The notes under the pieces: generated by a model | Database searches by the model: none | The model's input: the letters and a program-made list of their open reading frames with translations, nothing else | Told to the model about the DNA's origin: nothing | Part shown: positions 8,223 to 22,498 of the stretch, one piece after another | Numbering within the stretch: position 1 is the first letter of the stretch | How the letters are laid out: every line of letters starts with the position of its first letter | Program-made: the position numbers and the translations under genes | Assembly: GCA_041690135.1 (NCBI GenBank) | Contig: JAWLHY010000003.1 | Span: 608,001 to 672,000, forward strand | Reading direction: 5' to 3' | Origin: Armatimonadota bacterium | GTDB taxonomy: Bacteria; Armatimonadota; SYMT01 | Length of the DNA stretch: 64,000 bases

Positions 8223-9205
8223 CGATCCAGCTCCAGGTCCAGAAACGCCTGCCCCACCTGCGGATCGAATTCCGATCCCAGGCCGGCGGCGAGGATGTCT
8301 CGGGCCTGGGAACGTGGCCGCGCCGGACGATAGGCGCGATCCGCGGTCATTGCCTCATAGGCATCGACGACCCGGATGACACGGGAAAGATAGGGAATCC
8401 GGTTGCCGCTGAGGCGATCCGGATATCCCGTGCCGTCTGTGTTTTCGTGATGATGGCGGATAATGGTCGCCACTTCCGAGAGCTGGGCTACTTTCCCGGC
8501 AATCTCGGCGCTCCGAATCGGATGCATCCGCATCAAGGCCCATTCTTCTTCGGTCAGGGGGCCGGCTTTACGGAGGACGTGCTCCGGAACGGCGATCTTT
8601 CCGACGTCGTGGAGAAGCGCAGAGAATTCCAGTACGCGCAGGCGCGCCTCCGGCATCCCCAGTTTGTGCCCAAAGTGGAGCGATATCCGGGTTACCTCGG
8701 CTGAATGACAGGCGGTGTAGGAGTCTTTGGCGTCCACTGCGGCCACCAGGGCTTGAATAGTGCCGTGGAGCATCTCCGTAGTGAGGTCGAGCGTCCGCTG
8801 CCGGTCCCATTCCAGGCGGGCCAGGTTCTGCTCGATCACCCGGTTGAGCTGGGGCATCTCCACCGGTTTGGCGAGGAAGTCGGTCGCACCGGCACCCATG
8901 GCCGAGCGAGCGAGGCTGACCTCGTCGTAGGCGGTGAGCAAGATAAACGGCAAACCTTTCAGGTGCTGGTTGACGAACCCGAGCAGGTCCAGCCCCGTAC
9001 CATCTCCCATCTCATAATCGCAGATCACCAGGCTAAAAGGGCTCGAGGCCAAACGCTCTCGAGCCGCACTGACGCCGGTTGCCGTCTCGGCGTCATATCC
9101 CATCCGGCGCAGCCCCCGGACGAGAAACTTGCGAACCGCTTCATCATCATCCACCACCAGGATCGGCGGCGTGAATGGTACAGAGGTGAGGGGGGATACA
9201 GTCAT
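8219..9205 (-). CDS. Response regulator with HD-GYP domain (putative c-di-GMP phosphodiesterase)
   Basis: Receiver (ILVVDDD), LLHDVGK, HHENTDGTGYP. Confidence 0.92.
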   Translation of the reverse strand: MTVSPLTSVPFTPPILVVDDDEAVRKFLVRGLRRMGYDAETATGVSAARERLASSPFSLVICDYEMGDGTGLDLLGFVNQHLKGLPFILLTAYDEVSLARSAMGAGATDFLAKPVEMPQLNRVIEQNLARLEWDRQRTLDLTTEMLHGTIQALVAAVDAKDSYTACHSAEVTRISLHFGHKLGMPEARLRVLEFSALLHDVGKIAVPEHVLRKAGPLTEEEWALMRMHPIRSAEIAGKVAQLSEVATIIRHHHENTDGTGYPDRLSGNRIPYLSRVIRVVDAYEAMTADRAYRPARPRSQARDILAAGLGSEFDPQVGQAFLDLELDR

Positions 9206-9405
9206 TCATCACCATTTCAGGGTTCGGGATCCGCGCGACGACGCTCCCTTCCTGTATACCGAACCGGCTCCCCTCTTAGCACACCGGTCTCTCCGCGGCA
9301 GCCGCCTTCCCAGTGGGAACGCCATCCCGGCAACCCTTCGCTTGGGGTAGACTCGCGTCGCGCCTCCCGAAGGTTACCGGGGCGGTCGGGGCAAATCATG
9401 GTCTC

Positions 9406-10593
9406 ATGTTCACCATGCTCCGCGCCTGCACTGCCGCCGTCCTCCTGTTCGGAACCAGCGCGCTCCTCGCGAGTTGCGGCGAGCCACCCGTTGCCCGAGC
9501 CGCCACGGAGCGCGTGGAGCTGGTTCGGGTCCCGGACGGCGGCATCCAGCCGCAGGCGGTTGCCGATGAGCGCGGTACGGCGCACGTGGTTTATCTGAAG
9601 GGGGATCCCGGCGCCTGCGACGTGTTTTACACCCGGCGCACCGGGGCGAGTTGGTCTGTCCCCCTGCGCGTGAACCGCCGCCCGGGGAGCGCGGTGGCGA
9701 TGGGCACGATCCGAGGTCCGCAACTCGCCCTGGGCAAGAACGGCAGCGTCCACGTCGTCTGGTTTGGCTCCCGCCAATCCGGGCTGCAGGGTCCGGAAGG
9801 CAGTGCGCCCCTCCTCTACGCTCGGCTTTCTGAAGGCGGCGGGGCCTTCGAGCCGGAGCGGAACCTGATGCAGGCCAGCACCGCCCTCGACGGTGGTCCG
9901 GGGGTGGCGGCCGACGTCATGGGGAACGTTTATGTTGCCTGGCAGGCCGCCGCGCGCAAGGGCGAGGGCGAAGAAAACCGGCGCCTCTGGATCGCCCGCT
10001 CTACTGATGACGGCAAGAGCTTTTCCCAGGAGACCCCCGCGGGCACCGAGCCGACCGGCGCCTGTCCCTGCTGCAGCACAGAGGTCTTTGCCGACCGCAA
10101 GGGCCATTTATATACCCTCTACCGGATGGCCGCGAACCGGACGGAGCGGGATATGGTGCTCGTGACCTCCGCGAACCAGGGCCGCACCTTCCAGACCACG
10201 CGGATCGATCCGTGGCCGGTGGATTCCTGACCGATGAGCAGCGAGGCCCTCGTCGAGGGCCCGAACGGCGTGTCGGCTGCCTGGGAAACGCAGGGGCAGG
10301 TGAAGTTCGCCCGGGTGGAGCCCGGCGCGGCAAAACTCTCCACCCCCACCGCGGCACCAGGGACCGGCCGAAACCGGAAGCACCCGGTGCTCGCGGTGAA
10401 CGCAAAGGGAGAGACCCTGCTGGCCTGGACGGAGGGAACCGGCTGGAACCGCGGCGGCGCCCTGGCGTGGCAGCTATTCGACGCTGCGGGCCGTCCGCTG
10501 CCGGAGAAGGGCCGCATCGAGGGCGGCATCCCGGTGTGGGGCCTCGCCGCGACGGTGACCCGGCCGGATGGCGGCTTTCTGCTCATCCATTAA
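9406..10593 (+). CDS. BNR/sialidase-like lipoprotein, probable selenoprotein (in-frame TGA 10228-10230)
   Basis: ORFs 9313..10230 and 10234..10593 share a frame and are separated only by TGA-CCG, reading WPVDS-U-PMSS. Lipobox LLASC, Asp-box STDDGKSF and SANQGRTF, GACPCC motif, hairpin just 3' of the TGA. Confidence 0.82.
10245..10261 (+). promoter_or_regulatory. Putative bacterial SECIS element
   Basis: GGCCCTC-GTC-GAGGGCC perfect 7-bp stem. The G-initial loop starts 21 nt after the TGA and has the same GTC sequence as the fdh SECIS. Confidence 0.7.
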
Positions 10594-10630: not shown

Positions 10631-11671
10631 TCAGGCCGCCTGCTTCAGCACCACCTTCAAGGCACCGGTTTCTCCCGCGCGACTGAACACGTCGTAGGCC
10701 TCCATGGCATCCGAGAGGGGGAACGTGTGGGTCGCAAAAAGTGTCGGATCGAAACGCCCCGCCTGGATCAACTTCAGAAGCTGCGGCACGCTCACCGTGT
10801 CCACCAGCCGGGTGGTGATGGTGACGTTGTGGGCCCAGAGCCGCTCCAGGTGCAGGCAGGCCGGCTTACCGTGAACCCCGATGTTGGCGACCCGGCCGCC
10901 GGGCCGCACCAGGTCAGTGCAAAGCTCAAAAGTCTCCGGGACGCCGACTGCTTCCATCGCCACGTCCACGCCGGCGCCGCCGGTCAGCTCCATCACCCGG
11001 TCTCGGGTATCTTCGCTACTTCGAAGGGTTACGTCCGCGCCGAACTGGCGGGCGAGCTCCAGCCGGGCTTCTTCCAGGTCGATGGCGATGATCCGGCTGG
11101 GGCTGTAGAGCCGGGACAGCAACACCGCCGCCAGGCCGATCGGTCCCGCGCCCACGATCGCCACGACGTCGCCGGGTTTTACCTGGCCGTTCAGCACGCC
11201 GCACTCATACGACGTCGGGAGGATATCGGCAAGAAAGAGCACCTGCTCGTCGGTCAGCTCGTCCGGGACTTTGTAGAGACTGGTTTCCGCGTAGGGAACG
11301 CGCGCGTACTCGGCCTGGAGGCCGTGGATGAGATGGCCGAAGAGCCAGCCGCCGTGGCGGCAGTGGGAGTACATCCCTTCACGGCAGTAGTCGCAGCGAC
11401 CATCCGCTGTAATCGCCGGGATGAGCACCCGGTCGCCCTTCTTGAGGCCGGAGACGCTGGGGCCGATCTCCTCCACCACGCCCACCGCTTCATGTCCCAG
11501 AACAGTACCCGGCACCACTTCCGGAACGTCGCCTTTCAGGATGTGGAGGTCGGTGCCGCAGATGGTCGCGGTGGTAATCCGGACGATGGCGTCTGCGCCA
11601 GACTCGATCCGGGGATCTTCCACCCGCTCCCACGTCTTGCGGCCGGGCCCGTGAAAAACTACAGCATGCAT
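10631..11671 (-). CDS. Zinc-dependent alcohol dehydrogenase (MDR family)
   Basis: ICGTDLH, GHEAVG, DGRCDYCREGMYSHC, GAGPIG. Confidence 0.93.
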   Translation of the reverse strand: MHAVVFHGPGRKTWERVEDPRIESGADAIVRITTATICGTDLHILKGDVPEVVPGTVLGHEAVGVVEEIGPSVSGLKKGDRVLIPAITADGRCDYCREGMYSHCRHGGWLFGHLIHGLQAEYARVPYAETSLYKVPDELTDEQVLFLADILPTSYECGVLNGQVKPGDVVAIVGAGPIGLAAVLLSRLYSPSRIIAIDLEEARLELARQFGADVTLRSSEDTRDRVMELTGGAGVDVAMEAVGVPETFELCTDLVRPGGRVANIGVHGKPACLHLERLWAHNVTITTRLVDTVSVPQLLKLIQAGRFDPTLFATHTFPLSDAMEAYDVFSRAGETGALKVVLKQAA

Positions 11672-11844
11672 GGCTCTCTCCTATCCTGTAGGGAAGGTTT
11701 GCAGGGATATTACCCGCAGGATACCCGTTGGCGGAGAGCCTGATCGCGGTTTGTTCCGCGGATAGGCGCATCCGAGGTAGAGAAAGCCCTGGGTCCGGTG
11801 AACCCGGGCCCAGGGAGTGCAAGTGTGCCGAAGGGGACTGCGTT

Positions 11845-12324
11845 TTAATCAGAGGCCCGGTAGACCCTCCGGTAGCCAGCTACGCGGGCCTCTCCGGCAG
11901 GCCACATGATATAGCCGTAGGCGTGGCCGGAGCGGTTGTAGGGATTGCCCCGGAGGTTGGCGAGTTTACGCGACGTGATAATCCGGATGCGGCTCACCAT
12001 GACCCGACGCGGGTCATCCATCACGCGTCCCTCAGCCCGGACCCACTGCCCGTCGTCGAACCCGTCTTCGTCGACCTTCTCGCCATTGGGTCCCTTCAGG
12101 ACATAGGCATCCCCGAAGTGCAGTGTGTAGTCGGTCCGGCTGCGGCCGACGGCGATTTGCATCTTTTGCTCGTTCAACGTCCCTTTGGGCGGGCTGCTGA
12201 TCTGTCCCACGACCACGACCGGAGTGCCTTCCGGCAGGTGCGGAGTGGGACCACTCCGCGCTTCCATCCCCCGGCCGCACAGCAGCAAGCCGGTCATTAG
12301 AGCTGACGCGAGAACTGCACGCAT
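11845..12324 (-). CDS. Secreted hypothetical protein, one copy of a domain also present twice in 51826..52632
   Basis: GGAGG RBS before ATG 12324, signal peptide, GTPVVVVGQISS..KMQIAVG..DYTLHF..WVRAEGRVMDDPRR. Confidence 0.75.
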   Translation of the reverse strand: MRAVLASALMTGLLLCGRGMEARSGPTPHLPEGTPVVVVGQISSPPKGTLNEQKMQIAVGRSRTDYTLHFGDAYVLKGPNGEKVDEDGFDDGQWVRAEGRVMDDPRRVMVSRIRIITSRKLANLRGNPYNRSGHAYGYIMWPAGEARVAGYRRVYRASD

Positions 12325-12467
12325 CGTCTCCTCCATGCATGGAAGTGGGGCTCCGGAAACCCGCGAGATTGCAGTGTTCGTCCGAAGCCCCATTCTGCTG
12401 CGCATTTCCCCACGCCGCCCCCACCTCAAACGAGCGCAAGCGGAGCGAAGATGGGCACTACCGGGGG

Positions 12468-12929
12468 TTACTTACCCGCCTTGGCCTTGTCGTGGCCTTT
12501 GTGCTTTCCGTGGCTATCGTGCCCCTTGTGCAAACCGTTGTCGGCATGGACCTTGTGAAACTTCCCGGGATGGGCATGGAAGGTCTTGCGAGTCTGCGCG
12601 TTCGCGAAGAGGAAGAGCGCCCCCTGGTGCTCCATCCTCGGGCTCTTCGCCGTAAGGGTAAACGGCTTCCCGCTCACCGGGTCCTTAGCCTTCTTCAGGT
12701 ACTTCGCCGGGTGCTTCTTGATCTCGTCGATGCAGCCGGGGCAGCAGACCGGGACCCGCTCGTTGTTCACCATCAGGGCCGGCGCTTTCGCTGGGTGGGC
12801 CACCGGGGCCTCCATCACGGGACAGATGACGGCGCCCTTCGCATTGGCCTTCTTGTCGGCGGAGGCCGACCCGCCGAGCACGATCGTGGCCAGCAGGGTG
12901 GCGGAAAGGATGATCAATCGTCTGGTCAT
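12468..12929 (-). CDS. Secreted tandem YHS/TRASH metal-binding protein with His-rich tail
   Basis: CPVM..CCPGC..HPAKY, a second degenerate repeat DPVSG..HPGKF, tail HKGHDSHGKHKGH. Confidence 0.8.
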   Translation of the reverse strand: MTRRLIILSATLLATIVLGGSASADKKANAKGAVICPVMEAPVAHPAKAPALMVNNERVPVCCPGCIDEIKKHPAKYLKKAKDPVSGKPFTLTAKSPRMEHQGALFLFANAQTRKTFHAHPGKFHKVHADNGLHKGHDSHGKHKGHDKAKAGK

Positions 12930-13013
12930 GGTTCTTTCTTTCGGTTGAGGGAGCCGCGGGCCGACCTTCCGGATCGGTCCGCGACTTTAAGGTGGTAGGG
13001 ATCTGCGGCGGTG

Positions 13014-14348
13014 TTAGCGCACCGCCACCTGCCCCTTGTACATCTCCATGCCGCAGGTGAACGGCACCATGCCGCTCTTCTTCGGCGTAAAAGTCACTAC
13101 GGTCTTCTGGCCCGGCTTCAGCTTCCGCTTGATCCCCAAGCTGGGGAACTGGAGGACCTCGCCGCAGCCGGCCTTTTCCTTCAATACGAACGTCAGGGCA
13201 ACCGGCTGACCCGCCTTCACGCTGACCTTCGCCGGCAAGTACTCCCCATCGATGACCACCGTGGCTCGCTGGGCGCCCCGGCTGGTTGCCGCCGGCGTGG
13301 TCTTCGCAACGGATCCCCAGAGGTCCTCGGCCAGGAACGTAAACGGCACCGTATAGACCCGGTTGTTGTGAACGAACTGCGCCCAGGTCTTATAAAGACC
13401 CCCCGTGGGCACGGTGAGCTTGAAGGAGAAAGAAGGTCCCTTCTCCGTCACCATTGCGGGCGTCACCCGGAACGGCTCTTTCTCTCCGTGCATGGATGGC
13501 TGCGAGGGCGACGTCAGCGCGTGGGTATGCACCACTTCCTGTCCGTTCTGGCTGATGGCGAGCAGGTGGCCCATCGCCCCGATGAACGGCTGCATGTTCC
13601 GGACCGGCCTCCCGCGCCGGTCCTTGACCGTGTAGGTCAACAGGGCCGGCCTCTCCATCCGCAGCGGCTCCCCCTGGATCTTCAGCTCGAAGCGGAGGTC
13701 CCCTACCTGCATCACCCGCTTCGCACTGGGCGAAAGGGCTACCGTCCGCCCCTCGCCTCCGCCAATGGTCAGCGGAAGCGGGATCACCTGGTTGTCGCCG
13801 TCCGACGGGGTGAAGTCGGCGTAGAGCGTGTACTCGCCGGGCACCGGGAAGGTCCAGGTCTTCCGGAAGACTCCGTCCTCGCCCCGCACCGGGTGCTGGT
13901 GCTCAAACCAGCGGAGATCGCGCGTCACCATCAACAGGTGGAACAGGCGCTCATGGATCACCTCGAAGTCGGTGACGAGCTTGCCACTCTCTTTGTACTT
14001 GACGGCGAAGGCCAGCTCCACGGGCTTTCCGGCCACGGGGTTGGGAGATGTCTCGAGCTCGACCGTATATTCGTGCAGGTCGCCCTTCTCGAGTAGAGCC
14101 GCCAGCTTCTCGTATTTCGCCGGCTCCCCTTTGAACTTGACCACGCACTGCTGCGAGCAGAAGTAGAAGCTCTTGTTTCCGAGCTTGTGCTTCCACTTCG
14201 CCGTGTCGGAGTCGACCGTCATCCGGCAGACCGGGTCCTTCACATCGTGCGCGGATGCCGGGGCGCCCCCCGCGAACAAGAAACCCAGCGCGACGACCGC
14301 CCCCAGAGCCCAGCGACTCCAGCCTCTCTGCATCGAGTGTTTCATCAT
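13014..14348 (-). CDS. Secreted YHS + His-motif heavy-metal-binding + cupredoxin domain protein
   Basis: DPVCRM..YFCSQQC (YHS), IHERLFHL/FEHQHP and GAMGHL/VHTHA duplicated domains, C-terminal C..FTCGMEM cupredoxin (CupA-like). Confidence 0.85.
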   Translation of the reverse strand: MMKHSMQRGWSRWALGAVVALGFLFAGGAPASAHDVKDPVCRMTVDSDTAKWKHKLGNKSFYFCSQQCVVKFKGEPAKYEKLAALLEKGDLHEYTVELETSPNPVAGKPVELAFAVKYKESGKLVTDFEVIHERLFHLLMVTRDLRWFEHQHPVRGEDGVFRKTWTFPVPGEYTLYADFTPSDGDNQVIPLPLTIGGGEGRTVALSPSAKRVMQVGDLRFELKIQGEPLRMERPALLTYTVKDRRGRPVRNMQPFIGAMGHLLAISQNGQEVVHTHALTSPSQPSMHGEKEPFRVTPAMVTEKGPSFSFKLTVPTGGLYKTWAQFVHNNRVYTVPFTFLAEDLWGSVAKTTPAATSRGAQRATVVIDGEYLPAKVSVKAGQPVALTFVLKEKAGCGEVLQFPSLGIKRKLKPGQKTVVTFTPKKSGMVPFTCGMEMYKGQVAVR

Positions 14349-14371
14349 CTATTCCTCACCAAGCGTTCACG

Positions 14372-15304
14372 TTAGAAACCGTAAGAGTAGCCGGCGATCA
14401 CTCGCAGGCGGTCGCGCGGGGTACCGTCCCAACCGGCGATGTCGGACTGGATTCCGAAGTCCACGACCGAGCGGACTCCCACCTGCTTGCGGAACCCGAG
14501 GCCGATGCCCACGACTCCACCAGTACCGCGTTCCTCACCCGCCCGCACGGAGAGCTCCGCGAGGGCGGTCGAGTCGAAGCGGGTCGGGTACCCCACGGGG
14601 CGGCTGTAGCCCAGCACCACACCGGGGACGAACTGCCGCTCATCCCGCGCCGCGCCGGGGATGCCGGCGAGGTCCAGGTTCACGTGGAACCGGCCGTACT
14701 GCCCCGCCTGGCGGCTGGCGATGCCCCGCAGCCGGAAGGCCACCCCCTTCGCGTCTCTTCCGGTCGGGGCGAACAGGTCCGCCCGCAGAGAGAGCGCCGG
14801 GGTGTTGCCATACTGCCGATTGAAGTTGTGGAACAGCCCCACCGACACATCGCCCGGATCGAACCGGGTGTCATCCGTGCCGGCCCGGCCACCCACGCTC
14901 GGCTCAAACCCGACGTGGAGGTGGCTGTTCATGGCGAAGCCGTAGAGGTACTCCGCGTCCAGTCCTACCCCCAGCGGCCGGTTCCGTGGCCAGCCCAGGT
15001 TCAGCCCGAACTCCAGCGCCTGCTCCCGGAAGGCGATCGCCTCCGCGTCGTCGAACGAGAGCGGCCGGTGCGCGTCGATGTTGTTGTGGTCGACCGCGTG
15101 AGCCGATGTGGCGCTCGCGAACGCCGTCACGATCGCCAATCCCCAGGTCAGGATCCGCCGAGCGTTCGGGTGGGTGATGCGTATTGCGTATTGCGTAAGG
15201 GCTCGAACCCTCACACTTCCACACTTCCACCCCCCCATACTTCCGCACTCTCTGGCCGTCCGGAAGCCCAGCCACCGGCTTGTAGCCGATTTCAGCCCCT
15301 TCAC
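14372..15304 (-). CDS. Putative outer-membrane beta-barrel (start uncertain)
   Basis: GTG overlaps the upstream TGA (GTGA). Signal ends in SAHA. Alternating amphipathic strands and C-terminal GYSYGF. Confidence 0.7.
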   Translation of the reverse strand: MKGLKSATSRWLGFRTARECGSMGGWKCGSVRVRALTQYAIRITHPNARRILTWGLAIVTAFASATSAHAVDHNNIDAHRPLSFDDAEAIAFREQALEFGLNLGWPRNRPLGVGLDAEYLYGFAMNSHLHVGFEPSVGGRAGTDDTRFDPGDVSVGLFHNFNRQYGNTPALSLRADLFAPTGRDAKGVAFRLRGIASRQAGQYGRFHVNLDLAGIPGAARDERQFVPGVVLGYSRPVGYPTRFDSTALAELSVRAGEERGTGGVVGIGLGFRKQVGVRSVVDFGIQSDIAGWDGTPRDRLRVIAGYSYGF

Positions 15305-16890
15305 TTCGCACCTCGCACTTCGGTCCGATACGGGTTCTCGACGGGACCGCGGGCCGGAGCGTAGGTGTCCGGCTCCTTCCCTTCACGTTGCGCCCACTCG
15401 TCGAAGGAGAGTGCTTTCGCCTCCTTCAGCTTGGGGTGGGCCTTCACGTAGGCCTCGAAGGCGGCCCGGGAGGTGAAGGCGCGGCTCCACTCCTCGCAGC
15501 CGGTGTGGCTCTCTTCCTGCTCCAGGAACACCGCCCCCGGGGTGGAGGTCTTCAGGTTCCCCTGCTCATCGGAGATCACCACCAGCACCCGGTCCGGGTT
15601 CTCGGTGGGGATCCGCAGGATCGCCCGGCCTTTGGTTTCGGCCGACATGTCGCGAGCGCAGAGAACGCACCGTGTGCGCATCGTCCACCCGTCGGCACTG
15701 ACCGCCGCGTTCCGCCATGCCTCATTGCCCTCCCACAGCGGCATGGAGCAGTGGTGGCAGTCCGCCATGCTCATCCAGCCCAGTTCGGGCATCCACATCA
15801 ACTCCGGGGTCATGCCCTTCATCATTCCCATGCCGGGCATGCCCACGAAGTGCCGGTGGTCGTGCAGCCGGTCCGCCGACTCCGTCCCCGGCTTCTCGCC
15901 CCGGTGGGCCTCGGCGGAGACCATCCAGATGGCGAGCTTGATCTGCTCTTCCTTCTCCCGCTCCGACAGCCACTCCGAGGCGAGGATGTCGTTCACCATG
16001 TCGTGGAGCATGTGCAGGTTATCGAAGGCGTTGGCGATGTGCGGGAAGCGCGCCCCGAACACCGGGCTGACTTCCGCGAACATCGGCATGAACGGCCGGT
16101 CCGTGCGGTACAACTCCACCTTCCGGTACTGCTCTCCCGCCAGGTCGTAGGAGGCCTTCTGGTCCTCCGGCGCAACCCGGTAGAGCAGGTCGTACATCGC
16201 TCCCTGGAGCCAGTGGTACCCCCAGAAGAGTCCGTTCACCTTCGGGTAGGTGTTGCGGAACTTCTGACTGTACGGCTGGCTGTACAGGTAGTCCATGTTC
16301 AGCGGCAGAGGCGTGACGGCGTACGGCACGCTCTCGAAGTAGTACTTCCAGAGCCGCTCGATCTCGCGGTCCTTCTCCGCCTGCGTCAGTTTCTTGCTGG
16401 CGAGGACGTCGACCGTCTGGGCATGCAGGATGTGGGTCCAGTCGAAGACCTGCTCCAACACGCCGTACTTGCGCACGAACGTGGGCGAGAGGGCCGCCTC
16501 GTCGGGCATGAACTTCGGCGGGTCCTTCAGCACCCGGTCGATGCGGGCGAAGGTCTTCGTCTCCAACCGGCCCGCTTTGCCGGTCACCAGGTCCTCGTAG
16601 GCCATCGCGTGCCCTACGGAGACCCCGTTCAGGTCCCGCGCCAGCCGGGGCAGGTTGTAGACGTCGAAGTTGTACCGGCCCCGCTTGTAGAAGATGTGGT
16701 TCTGCTTCTTGTTGTCCAGCCACCCGGGCAGGTTCTCCGGCACCCGCGGCAGCGCTTCCCGCCGTTGTGCGGCGCTGCTCCCCGCCTCTCCCGGCCCTGG
16801 AACCCTCTCAACCACCTGCGCCGCGCCAGCCCCCAACGCCAGCGAGAGTAGAAGAGCACCCCCAGCTAACGAACTTGGAAATCGGTTCAT
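15301..16890 (-). CDS. Secreted His/Met-rich putative metalloprotein with C-terminal NosL-like Cys domain
   Basis: Signal peptide, GHAMAYE, WTHILH, GYHWLQ, NLHMLHD, HDHRH, Met-rich linker, CHHC..RCVLC..HTGC. Confidence 0.8.
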   Translation of the reverse strand: MNRFPSSLAGGALLLSLALGAGAAQVVERVPGPGEAGSSAAQRREALPRVPENLPGWLDNKKQNHIFYKRGRYNFDVYNLPRLARDLNGVSVGHAMAYEDLVTGKAGRLETKTFARIDRVLKDPPKFMPDEAALSPTFVRKYGVLEQVFDWTHILHAQTVDVLASKKLTQAEKDREIERLWKYYFESVPYAVTPLPLNMDYLYSQPYSQKFRNTYPKVNGLFWGYHWLQGAMYDLLYRVAPEDQKASYDLAGEQYRKVELYRTDRPFMPMFAEVSPVFGARFPHIANAFDNLHMLHDMVNDILASEWLSEREKEEQIKLAIWMVSAEAHRGEKPGTESADRLHDHRHFVGMPGMGMMKGMTPELMWMPELGWMSMADCHHCSMPLWEGNEAWRNAAVSADGWTMRTRCVLCARDMSAETKGRAILRIPTENPDRVLVVISDEQGNLKTSTPGAVFLEQEESHTGCEEWSRAFTSRAAFEAYVKAHPKLKEAKALSFDEWAQREGKEPDTYAPARGPVENPYRTEVRGAK

Positions 16891-16952
16891 CCCATTTTCC
16901 TTTTTCTTATTCCGCGTCTTCCGCGTTTTCCGCGGGCAGAAATCGGGTGCCC

Positions 16953-17450
16953 TTATTTCGCGAGTTCGAGCATCTGCTCGAGGTTGAGCGGCTTCGCATC
17001 CTTCAGCAGGGCGGGGTTCGCCTCTACCCACTTCTGGAAGGCGACCTGGGTAGTCAAGGCGCGGTAGCCGAGCTCGCAGCTCCGGTGGCTCACCTTATGG
17101 CCCACGAACACGGCCGTCTCGGGAGCCACGCTCCAGGTCCCTCCTTTCCGGGTCAGCAGGACCGGTTTGCCCTTGATCTCGGAGGGAGCCAGGATCGTGA
17201 CGTCGCCCTTGTAGGTCTTTGCATCGGTGAGGGCGCACCACACGCACCGGTACTCGATCCGCTTGCGGCCGAACTTGAGCGCTACTTCGTTGTCGAGCTT
17301 ATCCGTGTCCTGAACCACGTCCAGCTTGCACACCGGGCACTTCGCCTCATGGGCCAGGGCCGGGCGCTGGTCGGAATTCAAGACTGCGCCGCCGAGCAGC
17401 GCAGCCAGGGTGCCGGCCAGCAACGTCCGGCGGTGGAAAACGGTCTTCAT
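16953..17450 (-). CDS. Tat-exported Cys-rich (NosL-like) putative metal chaperone
   Basis: GAGGAG RBS, HRRTLL Tat-like signal ending ALA, CPVC..RCVWC..HRSC. Confidence 0.78.
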   Translation of the reverse strand: MKTVFHRRTLLAGTLAALLGGAVLNSDQRPALAHEAKCPVCKLDVVQDTDKLDNEVALKFGRKRIEYRCVWCALTDAKTYKGDVTILAPSEIKGKPVLLTRKGGTWSVAPETAVFVGHKVSHRSCELGYRALTTQVAFQKWVEANPALLKDAKPLNLEQMLELAK

Positions 17451-17843
17451 CGCTATCTCCTCAATCCGGTCTGAAACCCGCATGGTCAGAGCCGGAGGTT
17501 CTCGCATGGATCAGTTCTCGAACCCCATTCGAGCCGCTCGGCTATCGCCGTGTGGATCACGCGCCCTGTTCCGGCGGAACTGGCCCGGATGGGACGGGAG
17601 CCGCGGACGGCACGAGAGCATGCTCCGGGGACCTCTGCAGCACGCACCGAGACGCAATGGGGCCTCGGATAGGCAGCTAGAGGGATACGGCGGCAGCGCC
17701 CTTCATCGGATCACAGTTTCTGACCGGGTGCGGCGGAATCCGGGACTATGCCGGGTCTCCCGGGTATGGGAGTAGAGGCTTCGTCCATTCAACCGCGGGA
17801 ACAGACCCGTGGAACGATCAGGCGCAGAAACACCCGCTGGTGA

Positions 17844-18302
17844 TCAGGCCGTGGGGGGAGCGCGAGAAGGAGCGGAAGAGAGAGCTACCTGGGGTAGCGG
17901 GGGCTGGTCGCCAGAGGGAACGGCATGGGTCACCGTCGAGGGTGCCGGCCACGTGAGCCTCTGGGGCAAAACGGCCACGAAAGAGATGGCCGTGCTTAAA
18001 GGCGATAAGGATTCTCGAAGGGCCGCTGGTGCGGGGGACGCGGGCGCCTCGACGACGCAGCAGCAATTCCCCCGGTTAGCGGCCAGGACCTCCGGAGCGG
18101 AAGATCCGGCGGCGGGATCGCAGCAGCACCCACCGGCTTGCCCGGCGCCCGCCGTCAGCGTAAACTGGCGAGAGACCGCCTCGCCGGCCGCCATCCGCGT
18201 TCCGCAGGCGAGTGCGCGGACGGGGAACCCGGCAAGGGTGAAAGCCATTGCCAGGACCAGCGTCCACACCATCCAGCGGCGGCGATCCAGCGGAGTCGAC
18301 AT
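17844..18302 (-). CDS. Cys-rich leader protein ending in RAPP (DUF2946/CruR/CutF-like architecture)
   Basis: N-terminal RRRW plus hydrophobic signal, GCCCD and NCCCV clusters, Pro-rich C-terminus SSAPSRAPPTA-stop. First gene after the promoter. Confidence 0.72.
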   Translation of the reverse strand: MSTPLDRRRWMVWTLVLAMAFTLAGFPVRALACGTRMAAGEAVSRQFTLTAGAGQAGGCCCDPAAGSSAPEVLAANRGNCCCVVEAPASPAPAALRESLSPLSTAISFVAVLPQRLTWPAPSTVTHAVPSGDQPPLPQVALSSAPSRAPPTA

Positions 18303-18348
18303 CGAAAACCCTGAGGAACGGAACGGCAGGAGCGCCGCCCACAACCGA

Positions 18349-18377
18349 AGTATACCCCCAAGGGGTATCTCCGTCAA
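18349..18377 (-). promoter_or_regulatory. Sigma70 promoter TTGACG-N17-TATACT containing a CsoR/RcnR-type operator
   Basis: -35 at 18377-18372 and -10 at 18354-18349 with an exact 17-nt spacer. Palindrome ATACCCC-CAA-GGGGTAT at 18352-18368. Confidence 0.8.
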
Positions 18378-18445
18378 ACCCACGGGAAATTTTCTTTTCT
18401 CCTGCCCGTAGTGTGGGTAGGTAGGGCAAGCAGGAGGGAGACTGA

Positions 18446-19234
18446 ATGAAGGCAATCATCCTGGCGGCGGGCTATGCCATGCGCCTGCGGCCCCTTACCG
18501 AGAACTGTGCCAAGCCGCTGCTGCCCGTCGGCGGCAAGCCCATGATCGACTATCTCTACGAGAAGATCACCCAGGTGCCGGAAGTTGATGCAGTCCACGT
18601 GGTCACCAACCAGAAATTCACGGCCCAGTTCGAGGGGTGGGCCCGGAACCATCAGCATCCGCTGCCGATTACCGTTCACAACGACGGCACCCTGAGCAAC
18701 GATGACCGGCTGGGCGCCATCGGCGACATCCAGTTCACGATTGAGCGCGGGAACCTGGCGGGCGACGACCTGTTGATCATCGCCGGGGACAACCTTTTCG
18801 ATTTCAGCCTCACCGACTACGTGGAGTTCTGGAAAAGCAAGGGGGACGGAAGCTGCATCGCGCTCTACCGGTGCGGAAGCCTCGACCTGGTCCGCGAGTA
18901 CAGCAGCGTGGACCTGACGGAAGGGGACCGGGTCGCGGCGTTTACGGAAAAGCCGGCGAACCCTACTTCGGACCTGGTCGGCATCGCGACCTACATCTAC
19001 CACCGGCGCCACGTGCCGCTCGTCCGGCAATACCTGGAGGAGGGCAACCCGCCCGATGCCCCAGGGAACTTCATTGCCTGGCTACACCGGCGGGAACCCG
19101 TCTACGGCTACGCCTTCTCGGGGGAATGGCTCGACATCGGCTCCCACGAACAGCTCCTCGCCGCGGATAACCGCATGCGCCAGCGGAACGGCCTCCCACC
19201 CCGCGCCGAGTACGACGCGGCGGACTGCTCATAG
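18446..19234 (+). CDS. Sugar-phosphate nucleotidyltransferase family protein
   Basis: KAIILAAGYAMRLRPLT..KPLLPVGG, IAGDN, WLDIG. Confidence 0.9.
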   Translation: MKAIILAAGYAMRLRPLTENCAKPLLPVGGKPMIDYLYEKITQVPEVDAVHVVTNQKFTAQFEGWARNHQHPLPITVHNDGTLSNDDRLGAIGDIQFTIERGNLAGDDLLIIAGDNLFDFSLTDYVEFWKSKGDGSCIALYRCGSLDLVREYSSVDLTEGDRVAAFTEKPANPTSDLVGIATYIYHRRHVPLVRQYLEEGNPPDAPGNFIAWLHRREPVYGYAFSGEWLDIGSHEQLLAADNRMRQRNGLPPRAEYDAADCS

Positions 19235-19615: not shown

Positions 19616-20458
19616 TCAGGGTTCGATGCCCAACTCCCGGAGCTTCGCGGCGAGGCGTTCGGCCCGTTCTCGTTCGGCTTCGGCCCGCTCCCGTTCGGCA
19701 TCGGCCCGCTGGCGCTCGACCTCCGCCCGCTCTCGTTCCAGGCGGGCCTGTTCCGCACCTGCTTCGCCTGGGGTCGGGAGGAGACGGCCGTCGGGATAGG
19801 CCCAGCGGAGCCAGTCCGCCTCGACACCCTGGTAGCTGCCGCGCCATCGGACCAGCGCCAGTCCGAGAGGATGACAGGGCAGGCGCCCTTCCCCATCCGC
19901 TTCCACGGGGAGATATACCCCGTTCTGGAGCTGGAAGCCGGCCAGTTCACCAGACCAGGGATCGTAGTAAAAATAGCCCGGCACGCGCAGCTCGTTCTGG
20001 TAGACCAGCTTCTTCTCCCCGCGGTCGACATCCGCGGTCGTGCGCGACAGCAACTCAATGACGACGTCCGGCACGCGTCCTTCCTGCCACACGACCCAAC
20101 TCTTGCGTTCCCGGTGCGGTACGCCGAGCACCACGAACACGTCCGGACCGCGGAAGTGCCGGTTGCGAAGCTGCTCCTCACTGAAGTAGACGAACATGTT
20201 CCCGCCGACGAAGAAGTCGTCCCGATCCGCCCAGGCGAGCCGCAGCGGTTCCATCAGGAGATGCATCTGCTCGACGTGGCGCCAGCTTTCCATCGGTTCT
20301 CCGTCGCTGTAGGGAAGATCGTCCTCGGTGGGCAGGCGCACCCCTTCCGGCAGGCCGTTCGGTCCCGGCGGAAGATCATCTTCCATCGGCATTCGAATGA
20401 ACTTCGAGCGCTTCGGTGTCTCCGCAGCGGGTTGGGGCGCGGGAATCTCGACAGCCAT
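19616..20458 (-). CDS. Uma2 family (DUF820) endonuclease-like protein with coiled-coil tail
   Basis: YSDGEPMES..H, GPDVFVV, PDVVIELLS, YFYYDP, tail AERERAERLAAKLRELGIEP. Confidence 0.9.
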   Translation of the reverse strand: MAVEIPAPQPAAETPKRSKFIRMPMEDDLPPGPNGLPEGVRLPTEDDLPYSDGEPMESWRHVEQMHLLMEPLRLAWADRDDFFVGGNMFVYFSEEQLRNRHFRGPDVFVVLGVPHRERKSWVVWQEGRVPDVVIELLSRTTADVDRGEKKLVYQNELRVPGYFYYDPWSGELAGFQLQNGVYLPVEADGEGRLPCHPLGLALVRWRGSYQGVEADWLRWAYPDGRLLPTPGEAGAEQARLERERAEVERQRADAERERAEAERERAERLAAKLRELGIEP

Positions 20459-20773
20459 AGTTGGTACTTCGCTTCCGGTGTCGCAGGGAGTCAGCTCCCT
20501 CCTTATTCTACATTCAAGGCCCGTCGTCTGCATGCTACCCGGCGCTTTGAAGGGATACATCAGGTTCTACCCTCACTCGCGATCCCATGCGGTTGCAACC
20601 TGGACCCTTCAACCCGTAACCTTCAACCCCTGGCCCCCGAGGGGGCTTCAACCACCCCCTGCCGCTAAACCGCACCCGCTTCGAGGTTTCTCGGGGGATC
20701 TCAACGGTTTTCCTGCGAACTCCGGCGCCCGGTTGCCGTCAGAGGACAGTGATCTACGGCGACGAGGACTCTG

Positions 20774-22498
20774 ATGAAAGACCCCTGCAACTTCGAATCG
20801 CGGTGCGCCACGGCCCGGCCGGGCCACGAATTGGCCCGGCTGAACCGGCGGACGCTGTTACAGCGGACCGCGACCGGGGTGGCGGGGCTCACCTGCGCCG
20901 ATTTCCTCCGCTTCTTCCTGCAGAACGGGATGCCCTATCCCGGCCGGGACGCGGTAATGGCGGCCGAGGCGTCCCAGGCCGCGCGGGAGCCGCGGTTCCT
21001 GATCTACTGGTACATGGAGGGCGGCTGGGAGTCGTACGACATGTTCAGCCCGGTAATGACCCCCAACCACATCTTCCAGCGGTTGGACGATCTCTCCAAG
21101 GAGCGGTACCGGGTCCTCAACTGGGGCAAACCGGGGTACGGTATCTACAAGCACGGCAACATCCGCTACGGCTACCTGGCGGAAAACGGCAAGCACCACT
21201 TCCCGGAGATGGCGGTGCTCAGCTCCATGCACACCGGCTCGTTCCACTCGGGCGAGCGGCTCATGGTGCACATGGGCAGCTACAACCTGAGGCTCCAGGC
21301 CGACCGGGAGGATGATGAACGCTCCGTGATGCAGGCGTTCTCGGAGGTGTATGGTCAGCCATATGTGCTCCCCAACCTCTCCTGGCACTACTGGCTCTCG
21401 GATGGGGAGCTGAACGAGGTCCAGTACACCGGACGCAAGGGCTACTACCACGCCCTCGGTCCCACGCACGCCCACAGCATCTACGCCGGCACGCCGGCCA
21501 ACCTCAAGCAGTTCCTGGTCCGGATGCGCCAGACCTCGAGCGACCCCGTGAACCGCGAGATCCAGAAGTTCCTGGACGACGCGCACCGGCTCTCGACGAG
21601 CGACCAGCACCTGGAAGCGGTCCGCAGCTACAACTCGGCCCGGCAGATCTACCTCAACCTCACCCAGCGCGGCCTCAAGCTGGATGAAAACATGCTCTCC
21701 CAGCTCTTCACCGACGCCACGCTGCGGGAGCGGTTCGAGATCAAGCCGGACGATGAGCTGCTCACCTACCGGAGCGTGAACGGCAACAAGGCCCGCACCA
21801 AGTTCGCGCCGCGGACCAACGTCCAGGCGATGATGACCTACGAGTTGATGCGCGCCGGCCTGAGCTGCGCCTTCTTCATCGAGACCCGCGACATCCGCAA
21901 GTTCGACAGCCACTTCACCCGCAAGAACCTCTGGGAGGCCGACCGCCGCACCCCGCGTGGCCAGCCGGACCAGACGCAGATGATGAACGAGGATCTCTGG
22001 AAGCCGCTGAACGCGCTGGTCGAGCTGTTGAAGAGTACCCCCTGCCCCGGCACGCCGGGCAAGAGCCTCTACGACGTGACCACCATCGTCCTCACCTCGG
22101 AGTTCGGCCGCACGATCCACGGTGAGGTGGACGCCATCCAGAAGATGAAGATCTCCGACCAGGAGAAGCAGGAGCTGATCGACGGCCAGGATATCTCCCA
22201 GCACTGGAAGGTGACCTCGGCGGCGTTCCTGGGGGGCCGGGTCAAGGGCGACCGCCAGTACGGCGGCATCGGCGAGAACACCCTGATGGCGATTCCGATC
22301 CTGCCCGACGGCAGCATGGATCCCGCCTACGACCCGAACACCGGCGAGCTGAAACCAGGCGCCCGCAAGGACCCGAAGTCGTGGATCCCCAACCACGGCG
22401 ATGTCTACGCGACCGCCCTCTACCTCTCGGATATCGACCCCAAGGGCCGCGGCCGCAACGACCGGGGACCGCTGAAGTTCATCAAGAAGGGCGCCTGA
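20774..22498 (+). CDS. DUF1501-like protein (divergent)
   Basis: Tat-like NRRTLL, YMEGGWESYDMF, FDSH, LTSEFGRT, GGRVKG. Confidence 0.75.
   Translation: MKDPCNFESRCATARPGHELARLNRRTLLQRTATGVAGLTCADFLRFFLQNGMPYPGRDAVMAAEASQAAREPRFLIYWYMEGGWESYDMFSPVMTPNHIFQRLDDLSKERYRVLNWGKPGYGIYKHGNIRYGYLAENGKHHFPEMAVLSSMHTGSFHSGERLMVHMGSYNLRLQADREDDERSVMQAFSEVYGQPYVLPNLSWHYWLSDGELNEVQYTGRKGYYHALGPTHAHSIYAGTPANLKQFLVRMRQTSSDPVNREIQKFLDDAHRLSTSDQHLEAVRSYNSARQIYLNLTQRGLKLDENMLSQLFTDATLRERFEIKPDDELLTYRSVNGNKARTKFAPRTNVQAMMTYELMRAGLSCAFFIETRDIRKFDSHFTRKNLWEADRRTPRGQPDQTQMMNEDLWKPLNALVELLKSTPCPGTPGKSLYDVTTIVLTSEFGRTIHGEVDAIQKMKISDQEKQELIDGQDISQHWKVTSAAFLGGRVKGDRQYGGIGENTLMAIPILPDGSMDPAYDPNTGELKPGARKDPKSWIPNHGDVYATALYLSDIDPKGRGRNDRGPLKFIKKGA

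Follow-up and report, generated by a model that had tools for sequence, protein, structure and literature searches.

A conserved exported module behind a RAPP-type leader and a CsoR-type operator in an Armatimonadota genome: a candidate operon for envelope copper handling

What is the function of a block of six genes for exported proteins that lies behind a promoter and a leader peptide which each resemble a known copper switch? The block occupies positions 12468-18302, minus strand, of a 64,000-nucleotide (nt) window from an Armatimonadota bacterium (GenBank assembly GCA_041690135.1, contig JAWLHY010000003.1, positions 608,001 to 672,000), and coordinates below are positions in that window unless a contig or locus is named. 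From a survey of the window's own genome (9.1 Mb, 97% complete) and of related loci in other species, we conclude that the block is probably a copper-induced operon for copper handling in the periplasm and at the outer membrane, which would serve detoxification by buffering CopA-delivered copper, by passing it through the outer membrane, or both. Both of its control devices are of known kinds, and its core, made up of g2, g3 and g4, is an undescribed module. We infer copper as the ligand from regulatory context, gene neighbourhood and folds; the operator boxes, leader conservation, synteny, folds, paralogy, fusions and docking reported here are in silico results. The features of the locus, in the direction of transcription, are as follows.

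18349..18377, minus strand: sigma-70-like promoter TTGACG-N17-TATACT, with 10/12 consensus matches
18353..18367, no strand assigned: CsoR-type operator TACCCC-TTG-GGGGTA, inside the promoter spacer
17844..18302, minus strand: g1, leader of 152 amino acids (aa), from the list of open reading frames (ORFs) and comparison
17451..17843, minus strand: leader-to-g2 intergenic region, 393 nt
16953..17450, minus strand: g2, twin-arginine signal and NosL/MerB fold
15301..16890, minus strand: g3, 529 aa, exported, no known family
14372..15304, minus strand: g4, outer-membrane beta-barrel, with an uncertain start (15304, 15238 or 15214)
13014..14348, minus strand: g5, exported, YHS + YtkA-like + Cupredoxin_1
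12468..12929, minus strand: g6, exported, YHS/TRASH-type with a His-rich tail

The genes are separated by 393 nt (g1-g2), 62 nt (g2-g3), 23 nt (g4-g5) and 84 nt (g5-g6), with an overlap or short gap between g3 and g4. Several outlines of the locus had been given in the original prediction, which was made from the letters of the window. Its six co-oriented, apparently exported genes are borne out, as all lie on the minus strand and each product carries an N-terminal hydrophobic segment when the translations are read by eye. Its emphasis on proteins rich in Cys, His and Met was overstated: these residues together make up 6.7-8.1% of g1, g2, g3 and g5, compared with 6.9% of the neighbouring alcohol dehydrogenase, and g3, which had been called His-rich, has 16 His in 529 residues; g6 alone stands out, at 13.1%. 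At the level of sequence, the candidate metal ligands are placed in conserved motifs, not in bulk composition. The statement that the cluster holds no P-type ATPase, RND pump or multicopper oxidase agrees with the Pfam scan of the six genes and the scanned flanks, where none was found. The further claim of uncharacterised families stands for g3, which has no Pfam or NCBIfam family, and for g2 and g4, whose matches are only marginal, and fails for the leader, a type already described (CruR/CutF). Neither g1 nor g3 matched Pfam, no match was returned by an NCBIfam scan of g1-g4, and Rfam gave none at E <= 1 over 12000-19000.

To assess conservation, a single genome from each of 185,579 species was scanned by pattern; this yielded 286 candidate stretches, 277 of them encoding a g3 relative; the best 80 of those stretches form the locus comparison used throughout. 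They are mostly Armatimonadota (Fimbriimonadaceae, Chthonomonas, Abditibacteria), with a few Elusimicrobiota, Zixibacteria, Holophagae/Acidobacteria and Ignavibacteriales. A synteny search, which had been proposed as a check on the cluster, supported it: g2, g3 and g4 occur together in every assessable locus, with g2 directly upstream of g3 in 77/77 (the other three contigs begin inside g3) and g4 directly downstream of g3 in 79/79 (the other contig ends inside g3). The outer genes are looser companions, g5 lying within 8 kb in 62/80 loci on either side of the core and g6 in 22/80, and the gene orders found are leader-g2-g3-g4-g5-g6 or leader-g6-g5-g2-g3-g4. Clusters of neighbouring ORFs, assigned by eye on representatives, look like CopA in 28/80 loci, RND in 13 and CsoR in 7, and those with Pfam-confirmed representatives are DUF2231 (15/80) and DUF305 (13/80). 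Scoring of 8,000 candidates gave 514 homologues of g3 at E <= 1e-3. Among the matches listed, the 119 other than g3 itself share 60-79% identity with it; wherever a source name is given it reads 'hypothetical' or is a signal-domain label, and the few organism names include Armatimonadota, Zixibacteria and Cytophagales.

The promoter and its palindrome were found as the original prediction had described them, with TTGACG-N17-TATACT at 18377-18349 and TACCCC-N3-GGGGTA at 18367-18353 in its spacer. This is the single sigma-70-like match across 11500-18600, and it means little alone because shuffled sequence averages 0.8 matches. The exact palindrome TACCCCNNNGGGGTA occurs at 2 sites in the 9.1-Mb genome, compared with 0 for the reversed control pattern, and the second site (contig C3:514042) adjoins csoR, about 75 nt 5' of an HMA (CopZ-type) gene that is followed by a Cupredoxin_1 gene and then a P1B ATPase with two HMA domains. 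Only one csoR-family gene was found in the genome (C3:513120-513338; 92.2 bits, Pfam 2.8e-26), and its product shows RYC...GHLESC, that is, a Cys...His-x3-Cys arrangement that we take to be the Cu(I) ligand set. Relaxed boxes with C/G tracts lie at the copZ promoter (two), about 90 nt upstream of csoR (one), at the operon promoter and, as a pair, at C10:293782. The generic box pattern is not enriched genome-wide (9 sites versus 4 and 8 for two controls), and it is the C/G-tract version of the box that marks a small regulon. Among the related loci, TACCC-N3-7-GGGTA occurs at 26 sites in 18/80, and in six of them (L005, L008, L009, L010, L039 and L040) the box lies between or overlaps the -35 and -10 elements, directly 5' of the leader.

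The paired CsoR-type boxes on C10 (L087, C10:290500-297000; near 3283 and 3313) stand in the promoter of a gene at 2274-3242 on the minus strand of that locus, which encodes a 322-aa DJ-1/PfpI protein (Pfam 1.7e-26) with a twin-arginine N-terminus and may also belong to the CsoR regulon.

The second layer is the leader, g1, which has an export signal, seven Cys, two CCC motifs and the tail SRAPPTA-stop, so that RAPP (codons at 17853-17864) ends two residues before the stop. The two layers of control that had been proposed both stand: the operator is common to the csoR/copZA locus, and orthologous leaders (exported, with a Cys motif and with RAPP followed by 2-5 residues) head the operon in 52/80 loci. 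Over the 80 loci, RAPP endings occur in 58 of the 11,966 stop-to-stop ORFs with 50 codons or more, and an ORF of this kind lies on the operon strand upstream of the operon in the same 52/80; RGPP or RSPP leaders occur in 4 further loci, and 10 of the 24 leaderless loci have less than 1 kb of upstream sequence. The background of RAPP-ending ORFs in the genome itself is 68/85,981, and only three of these 68, namely g1 and two outside the window, combine a membrane segment, several Cys and a PSRAPPT[AS] tail. Seven relatives were inspected between box and g2, and each has an ORF of 150-190 codons there, with an N-terminal hydrophobic segment, CC(C), CxC and, at its end, RAPP plus 2-5 residues. 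A hydrophobic 15-mer (mean Kyte-Doolittle >= 1.7) occurs in 53/53 leaders and within 40 residues of the chosen start in 51/53, the most hydrophobic window lying far downstream in the L039 and L064 leaders; the choice of start was constrained to a hydrophobic segment within 40 residues, with no dedicated signal-peptide predictor.

On this conservation, g1 is a real leader. Its sequence drifts freely outside the signal, the Cys motifs and the tail, to the point that tblastn found g1 in only 1/80 loci, and 49/53 leaders keep 61-69 residues between their last Cys pair and the RAPP Arg (65 in g1), the exceptions being three leaders with an extra CxC near the tail and one with 77 residues. This free drift, with RAPP kept 2-5 residues from the stop at a fixed spacing, argues against the idea that g1 is an ordinary small copper-binding membrane protein whose RAPP tail has no regulatory role; the seven Cys and the export signal would suit such a protein, and arrest is a prediction, and still we hold this to be extremely unlikely. 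Given the generally known lengths of the ribosomal tunnel and the translocon channel, a 65-residue spacing would place the cysteine motifs outside the exit tunnel, and plausibly past the translocon, by the time RAPP reaches the peptidyl-transferase centre. None of eight leaders (g1 and 7 orthologues) matched DUF2946/PF11162 at E <= 10, and so g1 is filed as working like CruR and CutF, not as a member of the CruR family; its Cys motifs are likewise CC(C) and CxC, with no CXXC or CxxxC copper motif, a difference in letters that may leave the function the same. In published work, RAPP-type motifs are described as excluded from proteomes and as stalling ribosomes, arrest of CruR at RAPP is demonstrated in vitro (PMC12992588), and the CruR and CutF leaders of such design sense copper (PMC9426467; PMC9973294; bioRxiv 10.1101/2025.02.05.636593). 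By analogy with this design, the g1 leader would sense copper through ribosome arrest.

Other observations concern the leader and its counterparts in the genome. A 6-bp hairpin, GCTACCCCAGGTAGC, lies at 17884-17898 on the minus strand, inside g1 and 20 nt 5' of the RAPP codons, and is followed by a C/T-rich run; it was flagged by the terminator scan, yet has no T-run. A second leader, about 10 kb outside the window (L085, C3:589000-599500; 9191-9679, minus strand), has a signal, 7 Cys and the tail PSRAPPTA; behind it on that strand come a 124-aa ORF and a 295-aa barrel-looking protein (ending in ETFF, with no Pfam match), with a DUF2231-Rieske fusion and a fatty-acid-hydroxylase-family gene further down. 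A third (L086, C13:149500-160200; 9382-9990, minus strand) has the tail PSRAPPTS. The next ORF there (8698-9252, minus strand) encodes a 184-aa secreted protein in which CC is repeated more than 10 times, without a Pfam match, and which may be a periplasmic metal sponge; the opposite strand carries a 197-aa ORF that looks TetR-like by eye and an AcrB-type RND pump.

We next consider what the core proteins are. The protein that had been described as a Tat Cys protein, g2, fits that description, with the twin-arginine N-terminus HRRTLLAG and an invariant H-x3-CxxC...CxxC...HxxC motif. Pfam MerB (PF03243) matches it at 28.4 bits (cut-off 27) over profile positions 19-122 of 126; the same profile does not match g3, and NosL (PF05573) matches neither g2 nor g3 nor anything in the whole genome. 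An AlphaFold2 model of g2 (mean predicted local distance difference test, pLDDT, 87.6) was matched in VIA to NosL at Z 9.4 (root-mean-square deviation, rmsd, 3.3; 111/134 residues aligned), to MerB at 9.3 and to MerB2 at 9.1, with the next unrelated chain at 4.6. The AlphaFold2 model of g3 (pLDDT 82.9, predicted TM-score 0.83) consists of a helical N-domain (~51-324), a His/Met-rich linker (~343-373) with the motif HDHRH...GMPGMGMMKGM...MWMP...GWMSM, and a C-terminal NosL/MerB-fold domain (376-506), whose best structure matches are MerB2 (Z 8.8, rmsd 3.0, 121 residues), MerB (8.4) and NosL (8.4). Sequence and profile searches of the PDB gave no usable match for g2, the g3 C-domain, the g2 profile or the g4 profile, nor any MerB chain that could be aligned, and an ESM Atlas search for g3 returned only its own unnamed cluster. 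In an hhalign comparison g2 and the g3 C-domain align with a probability of 99.1% (E 1e-18, 127 columns), and the ligands C38/C378, C41/C381, C69/C408, C72/C411, H122/H462 and C125/C465 coincide, each invariant in its own alignment; on this sequence evidence the two are paralogues. NosL and MerB are described as duplicated TRASH-like treble clefs (PMC4999995), and since the NosL/MerB fold is such a duplication, the operon consists largely of TRASH-superfamily metal modules (g2, the g3 C-domain, the YHS of g5, and g6).

The likeness to MerB invites the alternative that the module's substrate is a different thiophilic species (Hg, Ag, or an organometal that a MerB-like site would cleave) and that its copper control is incidental. 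In its favour, g2 passes the Pfam MerB cut-off, MerB chains top the VIA list for the g3 C-domain and also the Foldseek list for g3, though none there at E <= 0.001, and g3 has an invariant C-A-R-D (C411-D414) that may resemble the Cys-x-x-Asp of the MerB active site. Against it, the N-terminal part of MerB is absent, the operon proteins are exported whereas MerB itself is cytoplasmic, both regulatory layers are of copper type, no mer genes were seen in the neighbourhood clusters, and NosL scores as well as MerB. We regard this alternative as very unlikely. N2O-reductase maturation, the role suggested by NosL, was ruled out because the genome has no NosL family member, no second g3 and no NosZ above cut-off (best 43.9 bits versus 625; nosDFY were not searched). 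One further frame touches these proteins: at L074:6285-8423 (plus strand) 712 codons join g6-like YHS/TRASH, g5-like YtkA and g2-like parts, either as a natural three-member fusion or as an assembly artefact.

The remaining parts of the core, the g3 N-domain and g4, appear to work together. The beta-barrel of the original prediction is upheld for g4, which has a C-terminal Phe and matches Phenol_MetA_deg (PF13557) at 19.7-20.5 bits, below the cut-off of 22, while 10/24 g4 orthologues match the family at E <= 0.01 (best 2.5e-7); no other family was matched at E <= 0.01 in the Pfam scan. These sequence matches suggest that g4 is an outer-membrane barrel and a divergent member of the Phenol_MetA_deg family. 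It is not similar to the second barrel of its own genome. A profile search of 1.84 billion representatives gave 437 matches at E <= 1e-3, many of which have the N-domain alone, set in other architectures. In 2 of 25 representatives scanned with Pfam the domain is fused behind a Phenol_MetA_deg barrel, and in 4 more of 87 (phmmer with g4) it is fused to a g4-like barrel, giving 6 representatives in total; other fusions are to DUF2231 (2), cytochrome c (1), a PQQ propeller (1) and Cupredoxin_1 (1). A complex model of g4 with g3 residues 45-340 scored 0.81, compared with 0.00 for the highest of 3 controls; the mark used for such models is reached by 116/157 solved complexes and 2/215 mismatched pairs, counts that are rough given the custom alignments. 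At least 88% of contacts recur between runs, the pLDDT of the partners is 88 or higher, and short g4 segments touch the first helices of g3; we take these segments, in the model, as the periplasmic face of the barrel. As fusions and complex model agree, the evidence supports a g3 N-domain that docks on and would cap g4. An enrichment of invariant g3 and g4 residues at the modelled interface was not clearly seen, and that idea was dropped. The N-domain also defines a wider unannotated family (fusion proteins P0145, P0175, P0177, P0187 and P0189), and DUF2231 genes neighbour g2 in 15/80 loci.

The conservation of this domain raises the question of whether it is itself a metalloenzyme of the periplasm not described before, such as a Cu(I) oxidase that makes up for the missing multicopper oxidase, seated on the barrel, fed by the NosL-like domains and with the g5 cupredoxin as redox partner. 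Across the 119 listed homologues, 7 His of g3 are invariant, as are many of its acidic and aromatic residues; the N-domain has a conserved His cluster (H94, H153, H156, H226, H293 and H296), and of 73 distant representatives at least 85% retain each of H94, H293, D161, D290, N291 and D301. The fusions to cytochrome c, PQQ propeller, Cupredoxin_1 and DUF2231, the DUF2231-Rieske fusion in the same genome, and the lack of a multicopper oxidase in the cluster by Pfam would fit such an enzyme as well. However, the domain has no structural match (best Z 5.3, within helical-bundle noise), which we do not take as a sign of a new fold, no cofactor can be inferred, and high conservation could equally reflect contacts with several partners. 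Among the His, only H94 and H293 are kept in the 73 distant members, along with D161, Y184, R212, N219, D290, N291 and D301, and H153, H156, H226 and H296 are confined to the g3 subfamily. An enzymatic role of this kind therefore seems to us quite improbable.

The outer genes add further metal-binding folds. The claim of a YHS and cupredoxin protein was confirmed for g5, with YHS at 40.2 bits (cut-off 30.3) and Cupredoxin_1 at 57 (cut-off 27), in addition to YtkA at 24.4 (below its cut-off of 25.9). The double YHS assigned to g6 is only partly recovered: Pfam gives a single YHS at 23 bits, below the cut-off of 30.3, with a Cys motif upstream of it, and the second YHS has no match.

Taken together, these results suggest the following scheme. 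At low cytoplasmic Cu(I), CsoR bound to the box between -35 and -10 would block transcription, and copper would release it, as at the promoter of copZ-cupredoxin-copA. Translation would then yield g1 as a short-lived exported leader, and copper bound to its nascent Cys motifs would alter the time for which the ribosome stalls at RAPP; the duration of the stall would set expression of g2-g6, with copper prolonging it and expression rising. In the envelope, the helical N-domain of g3 would dock on the periplasmic face of the g4 outer-membrane barrel, and g2, the free paralogue, would pass Cu(I) to the g3 C-domain by like-to-like exchange, a direction of transfer that we propose from the paralogy. 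The YHS/TRASH, YtkA-like and cupredoxin domains of g5 and g6 would add periplasmic binding capacity, and the net effect would be to buffer the copper exported by CopA and to remove it across the outer membrane or hold it there.

Several points weigh against this scheme. Export of copper against a gradient is beyond a passive barrel, and both NosL and CtaK, a relative of YtkA, serve as chaperones in copper delivery and not in detoxification. No role in the scheme falls to the His cluster of the g3 N-domain, and the twin-arginine signal is missing from several Fimbriimonadaceae orthologues of g2. A CsoR box is present at only 7/53 leader promoters, so the CsoR layer is restricted to this clade; the leader layer is, from these sequences, general and the CsoR layer lineage-specific, and copper induction through CsoR would be supported by context in this clade only. 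The leader-to-g2 gap, 393 nt here and 55-617 nt in relatives, and the high C content of the leader transcript (38.6%, with G at 30.7%) resemble CruR, where copper lowers expression, and by analogy would fit a Rho-type mechanism as in CruR. The fold of the leader-g2 region is no more stable than shuffles (z -0.18), and its minimum-energy form, no better than shuffles, pairs the leader's last codons with the g2 ribosome-binding region. When a stalled ribosome was simulated in 23 loci, the g2 ribosome-binding site (RBS) had a mean unpaired value of 0.42 free, 0.45 stalled and 0.45 with a control footprint (p = 0.12 versus free and 0.71 versus control footprint); the simulated stall thus did not open the site consistently.

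Much of this would suit a different role, in which the operon acquires and delivers copper: the barrel would admit it, g3, g2 and g5 would chaperone it to cuproenzymes, and the leader would act as in CruR, with copper relieving the stall, Rho terminating transcription and expression falling, so that together with CsoR the genes would be expressed only in a middle band of copper. The NosL fold of g2 and the g3 C-domain, the YtkA-like domain of g5, and the fusion of the g3 N-domain family to cytochrome c all agree with it, as do the long gap and C-rich leader RNA, features also described for cruR, and the presence of Cu chaperones for oxidase assembly in CruR-headed operons, both reported in PMC9426467. 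On the other side stand the operator common to the operon promoter and the copA efflux locus, neighbourhoods with CopA-, RND- and CsoR-looking clusters and DUF305, the genome's lack of a NosL family member and of NosZ above cut-off, and the other RAPP leaders of the genome, one of which stands before a barrel and the other before a secreted Cys-Cys-rich protein that has an RND pump as its neighbour. We therefore consider acquisition unlikely, and return to copper-induced handling and detoxification. For the switch itself we infer, and favour, a CutF-like positive sign, in which copper prolongs the stall and expression rises, because the promoter would be copper-derepressed and the neighbourhoods look like resistance loci.

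A bolder form of the same idea, which we offer as a doubtful conjecture, is that g3-g4 may be an undescribed kind of outer-membrane copper machine, built from a helical cap with a His/Asp site, a Met/His tether and a NosL-like Cu(I) domain loaded by g2. In Armatimonadota and several other phyla it would replace multicopper oxidase or Cus systems by oxidising or expelling periplasmic copper, and a new arrest-peptide subfamily would read periplasmic copper while CsoR reads the cytoplasmic pool, so that expression needs both.

How the locus relates to known systems can be stated part by part. The CsoR regulon of csoR, copZ and copA has the same C/G-tract palindrome overlapping the promoter, common here to copZ-cupredoxin-copA and csoR; the difference is that the genes behind the operon's box encode exported proteins of unknown families and not an efflux ATPase. 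NosL (PDB 7OG7, 2HQ3) shares its fold with g2 (Z 9.4) and the g3 C-domain (8.4) and is extracytoplasmic as they are, whereas g2 and g3 have no PF05573 match, are accompanied by no nosZ above cut-off, and carry a Tat or Sec signal without a visible lipobox, in place of the lipoprotein anchor of NosL, along with a CxxC...CxxC...HxxC set. MerB (PDB 3F0O, 5C17) likewise has the same fold and a marginal Pfam match to g2, and differs in that g2 and g3 lack its N-terminal part, are exported and stand in a copper context. PcoB/CopB and CusC are outer-membrane copper proteins, and g4 is like them in being an outer-membrane component of a copper-controlled operon beside periplasmic copper binders; unlike them, it pairs with a dedicated periplasmic cap protein and not with an RND/MFP pump or multicopper oxidase.

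The leader has two relatives in design. CruR (Bp2923, DUF2946/PF11162, from Bordetella pertussis) is the first gene of copper operons, with a CXXC motif, a 45-residue spacing, RAPP three residues from its end and a long intergenic region (PMC9426467); g1 is similarly an exported first gene with a fixed Cys-RAPP spacing and a long G+C-rich gap. It differs in that its family has no PF11162 match, has CCC/CxC in place of CXXC and a spacing of 61-69 in place of 45, and in that its promoter, judged from the CsoR box, would be derepressed by copper, while the operon that CruR turns down is one for uptake. CutF (cutFOG, Rhodobacter capsulatus) is also an exported leader with a Cys motif and a C-terminal stall motif, and it raises expression of a downstream Tat-signal protein that detoxifies copper (PMC9973294; bioRxiv 10.1101/2025.02.05.636593); g2 here also has a Tat-type signal. 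CutF stalls at PPP, is EF-P-sensitive and has a short gap with a stem-loop over the RBS, compared with RAPP, a 393-nt gap and no consistent RBS masking in 23 loci here.

A search of the literature returned nothing on the g2-g3-g4 module, within a scope that did not cover the large context tables of the CutF (File S1) and Roy et al. (Table S1) papers. The main text of the CutF paper (PMC9973294) and 3 small supplements contain no mention of Armatimonad, MerB, YHS, NosL or cupredoxin, and none of Armatimonad, YHS or twin-arginine appears in the EMBO J 2025 main text. Envelope copper handling in diderms is known mainly from Proteobacteria (CueO, Cus, Pco), and the locus presents a conserved, unannotated three-protein core that yields testable hypotheses for three families without a function and predicts a barrel-cap complex. 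By analogy with CruR and CutF, it would also extend arrest leaders of the copper-sensing type to a subfamily missed by Pfam, with another Cys motif and a longer spacing. With a leader of this kind placed behind a classical CsoR switch, the operon is a natural system in which to ask whether cytoplasmic and periplasmic copper are read separately.

The block is flanked by genes of other kinds.

10631-11671, minus strand: zinc-type alcohol dehydrogenase
18446-19234, plus strand: nucleotidyl transferase, divergent from the operon promoter
19616-20560, minus strand: Uma2-family endonuclease-like gene
20774-22498, plus strand: DUF1501 protein

A seventh co-oriented ORF of at most 194 aa with 11 Met follows at 11845-12429 (minus strand), 38 nt past g6, with a signal-like start at MRAVLASALMTG; it is probably outside the conserved module, because no relative of it was found in any of the 80 loci. 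Lastly, one of the compared contigs, L043, is titled as a Methyloversatilis metagenome-assembled genome and has the same layout and match coordinates as the Armatimonadota/Chthonomonas loci L041 and L044, a likeness that probably reflects a binning or labelling issue and not gene transfer.

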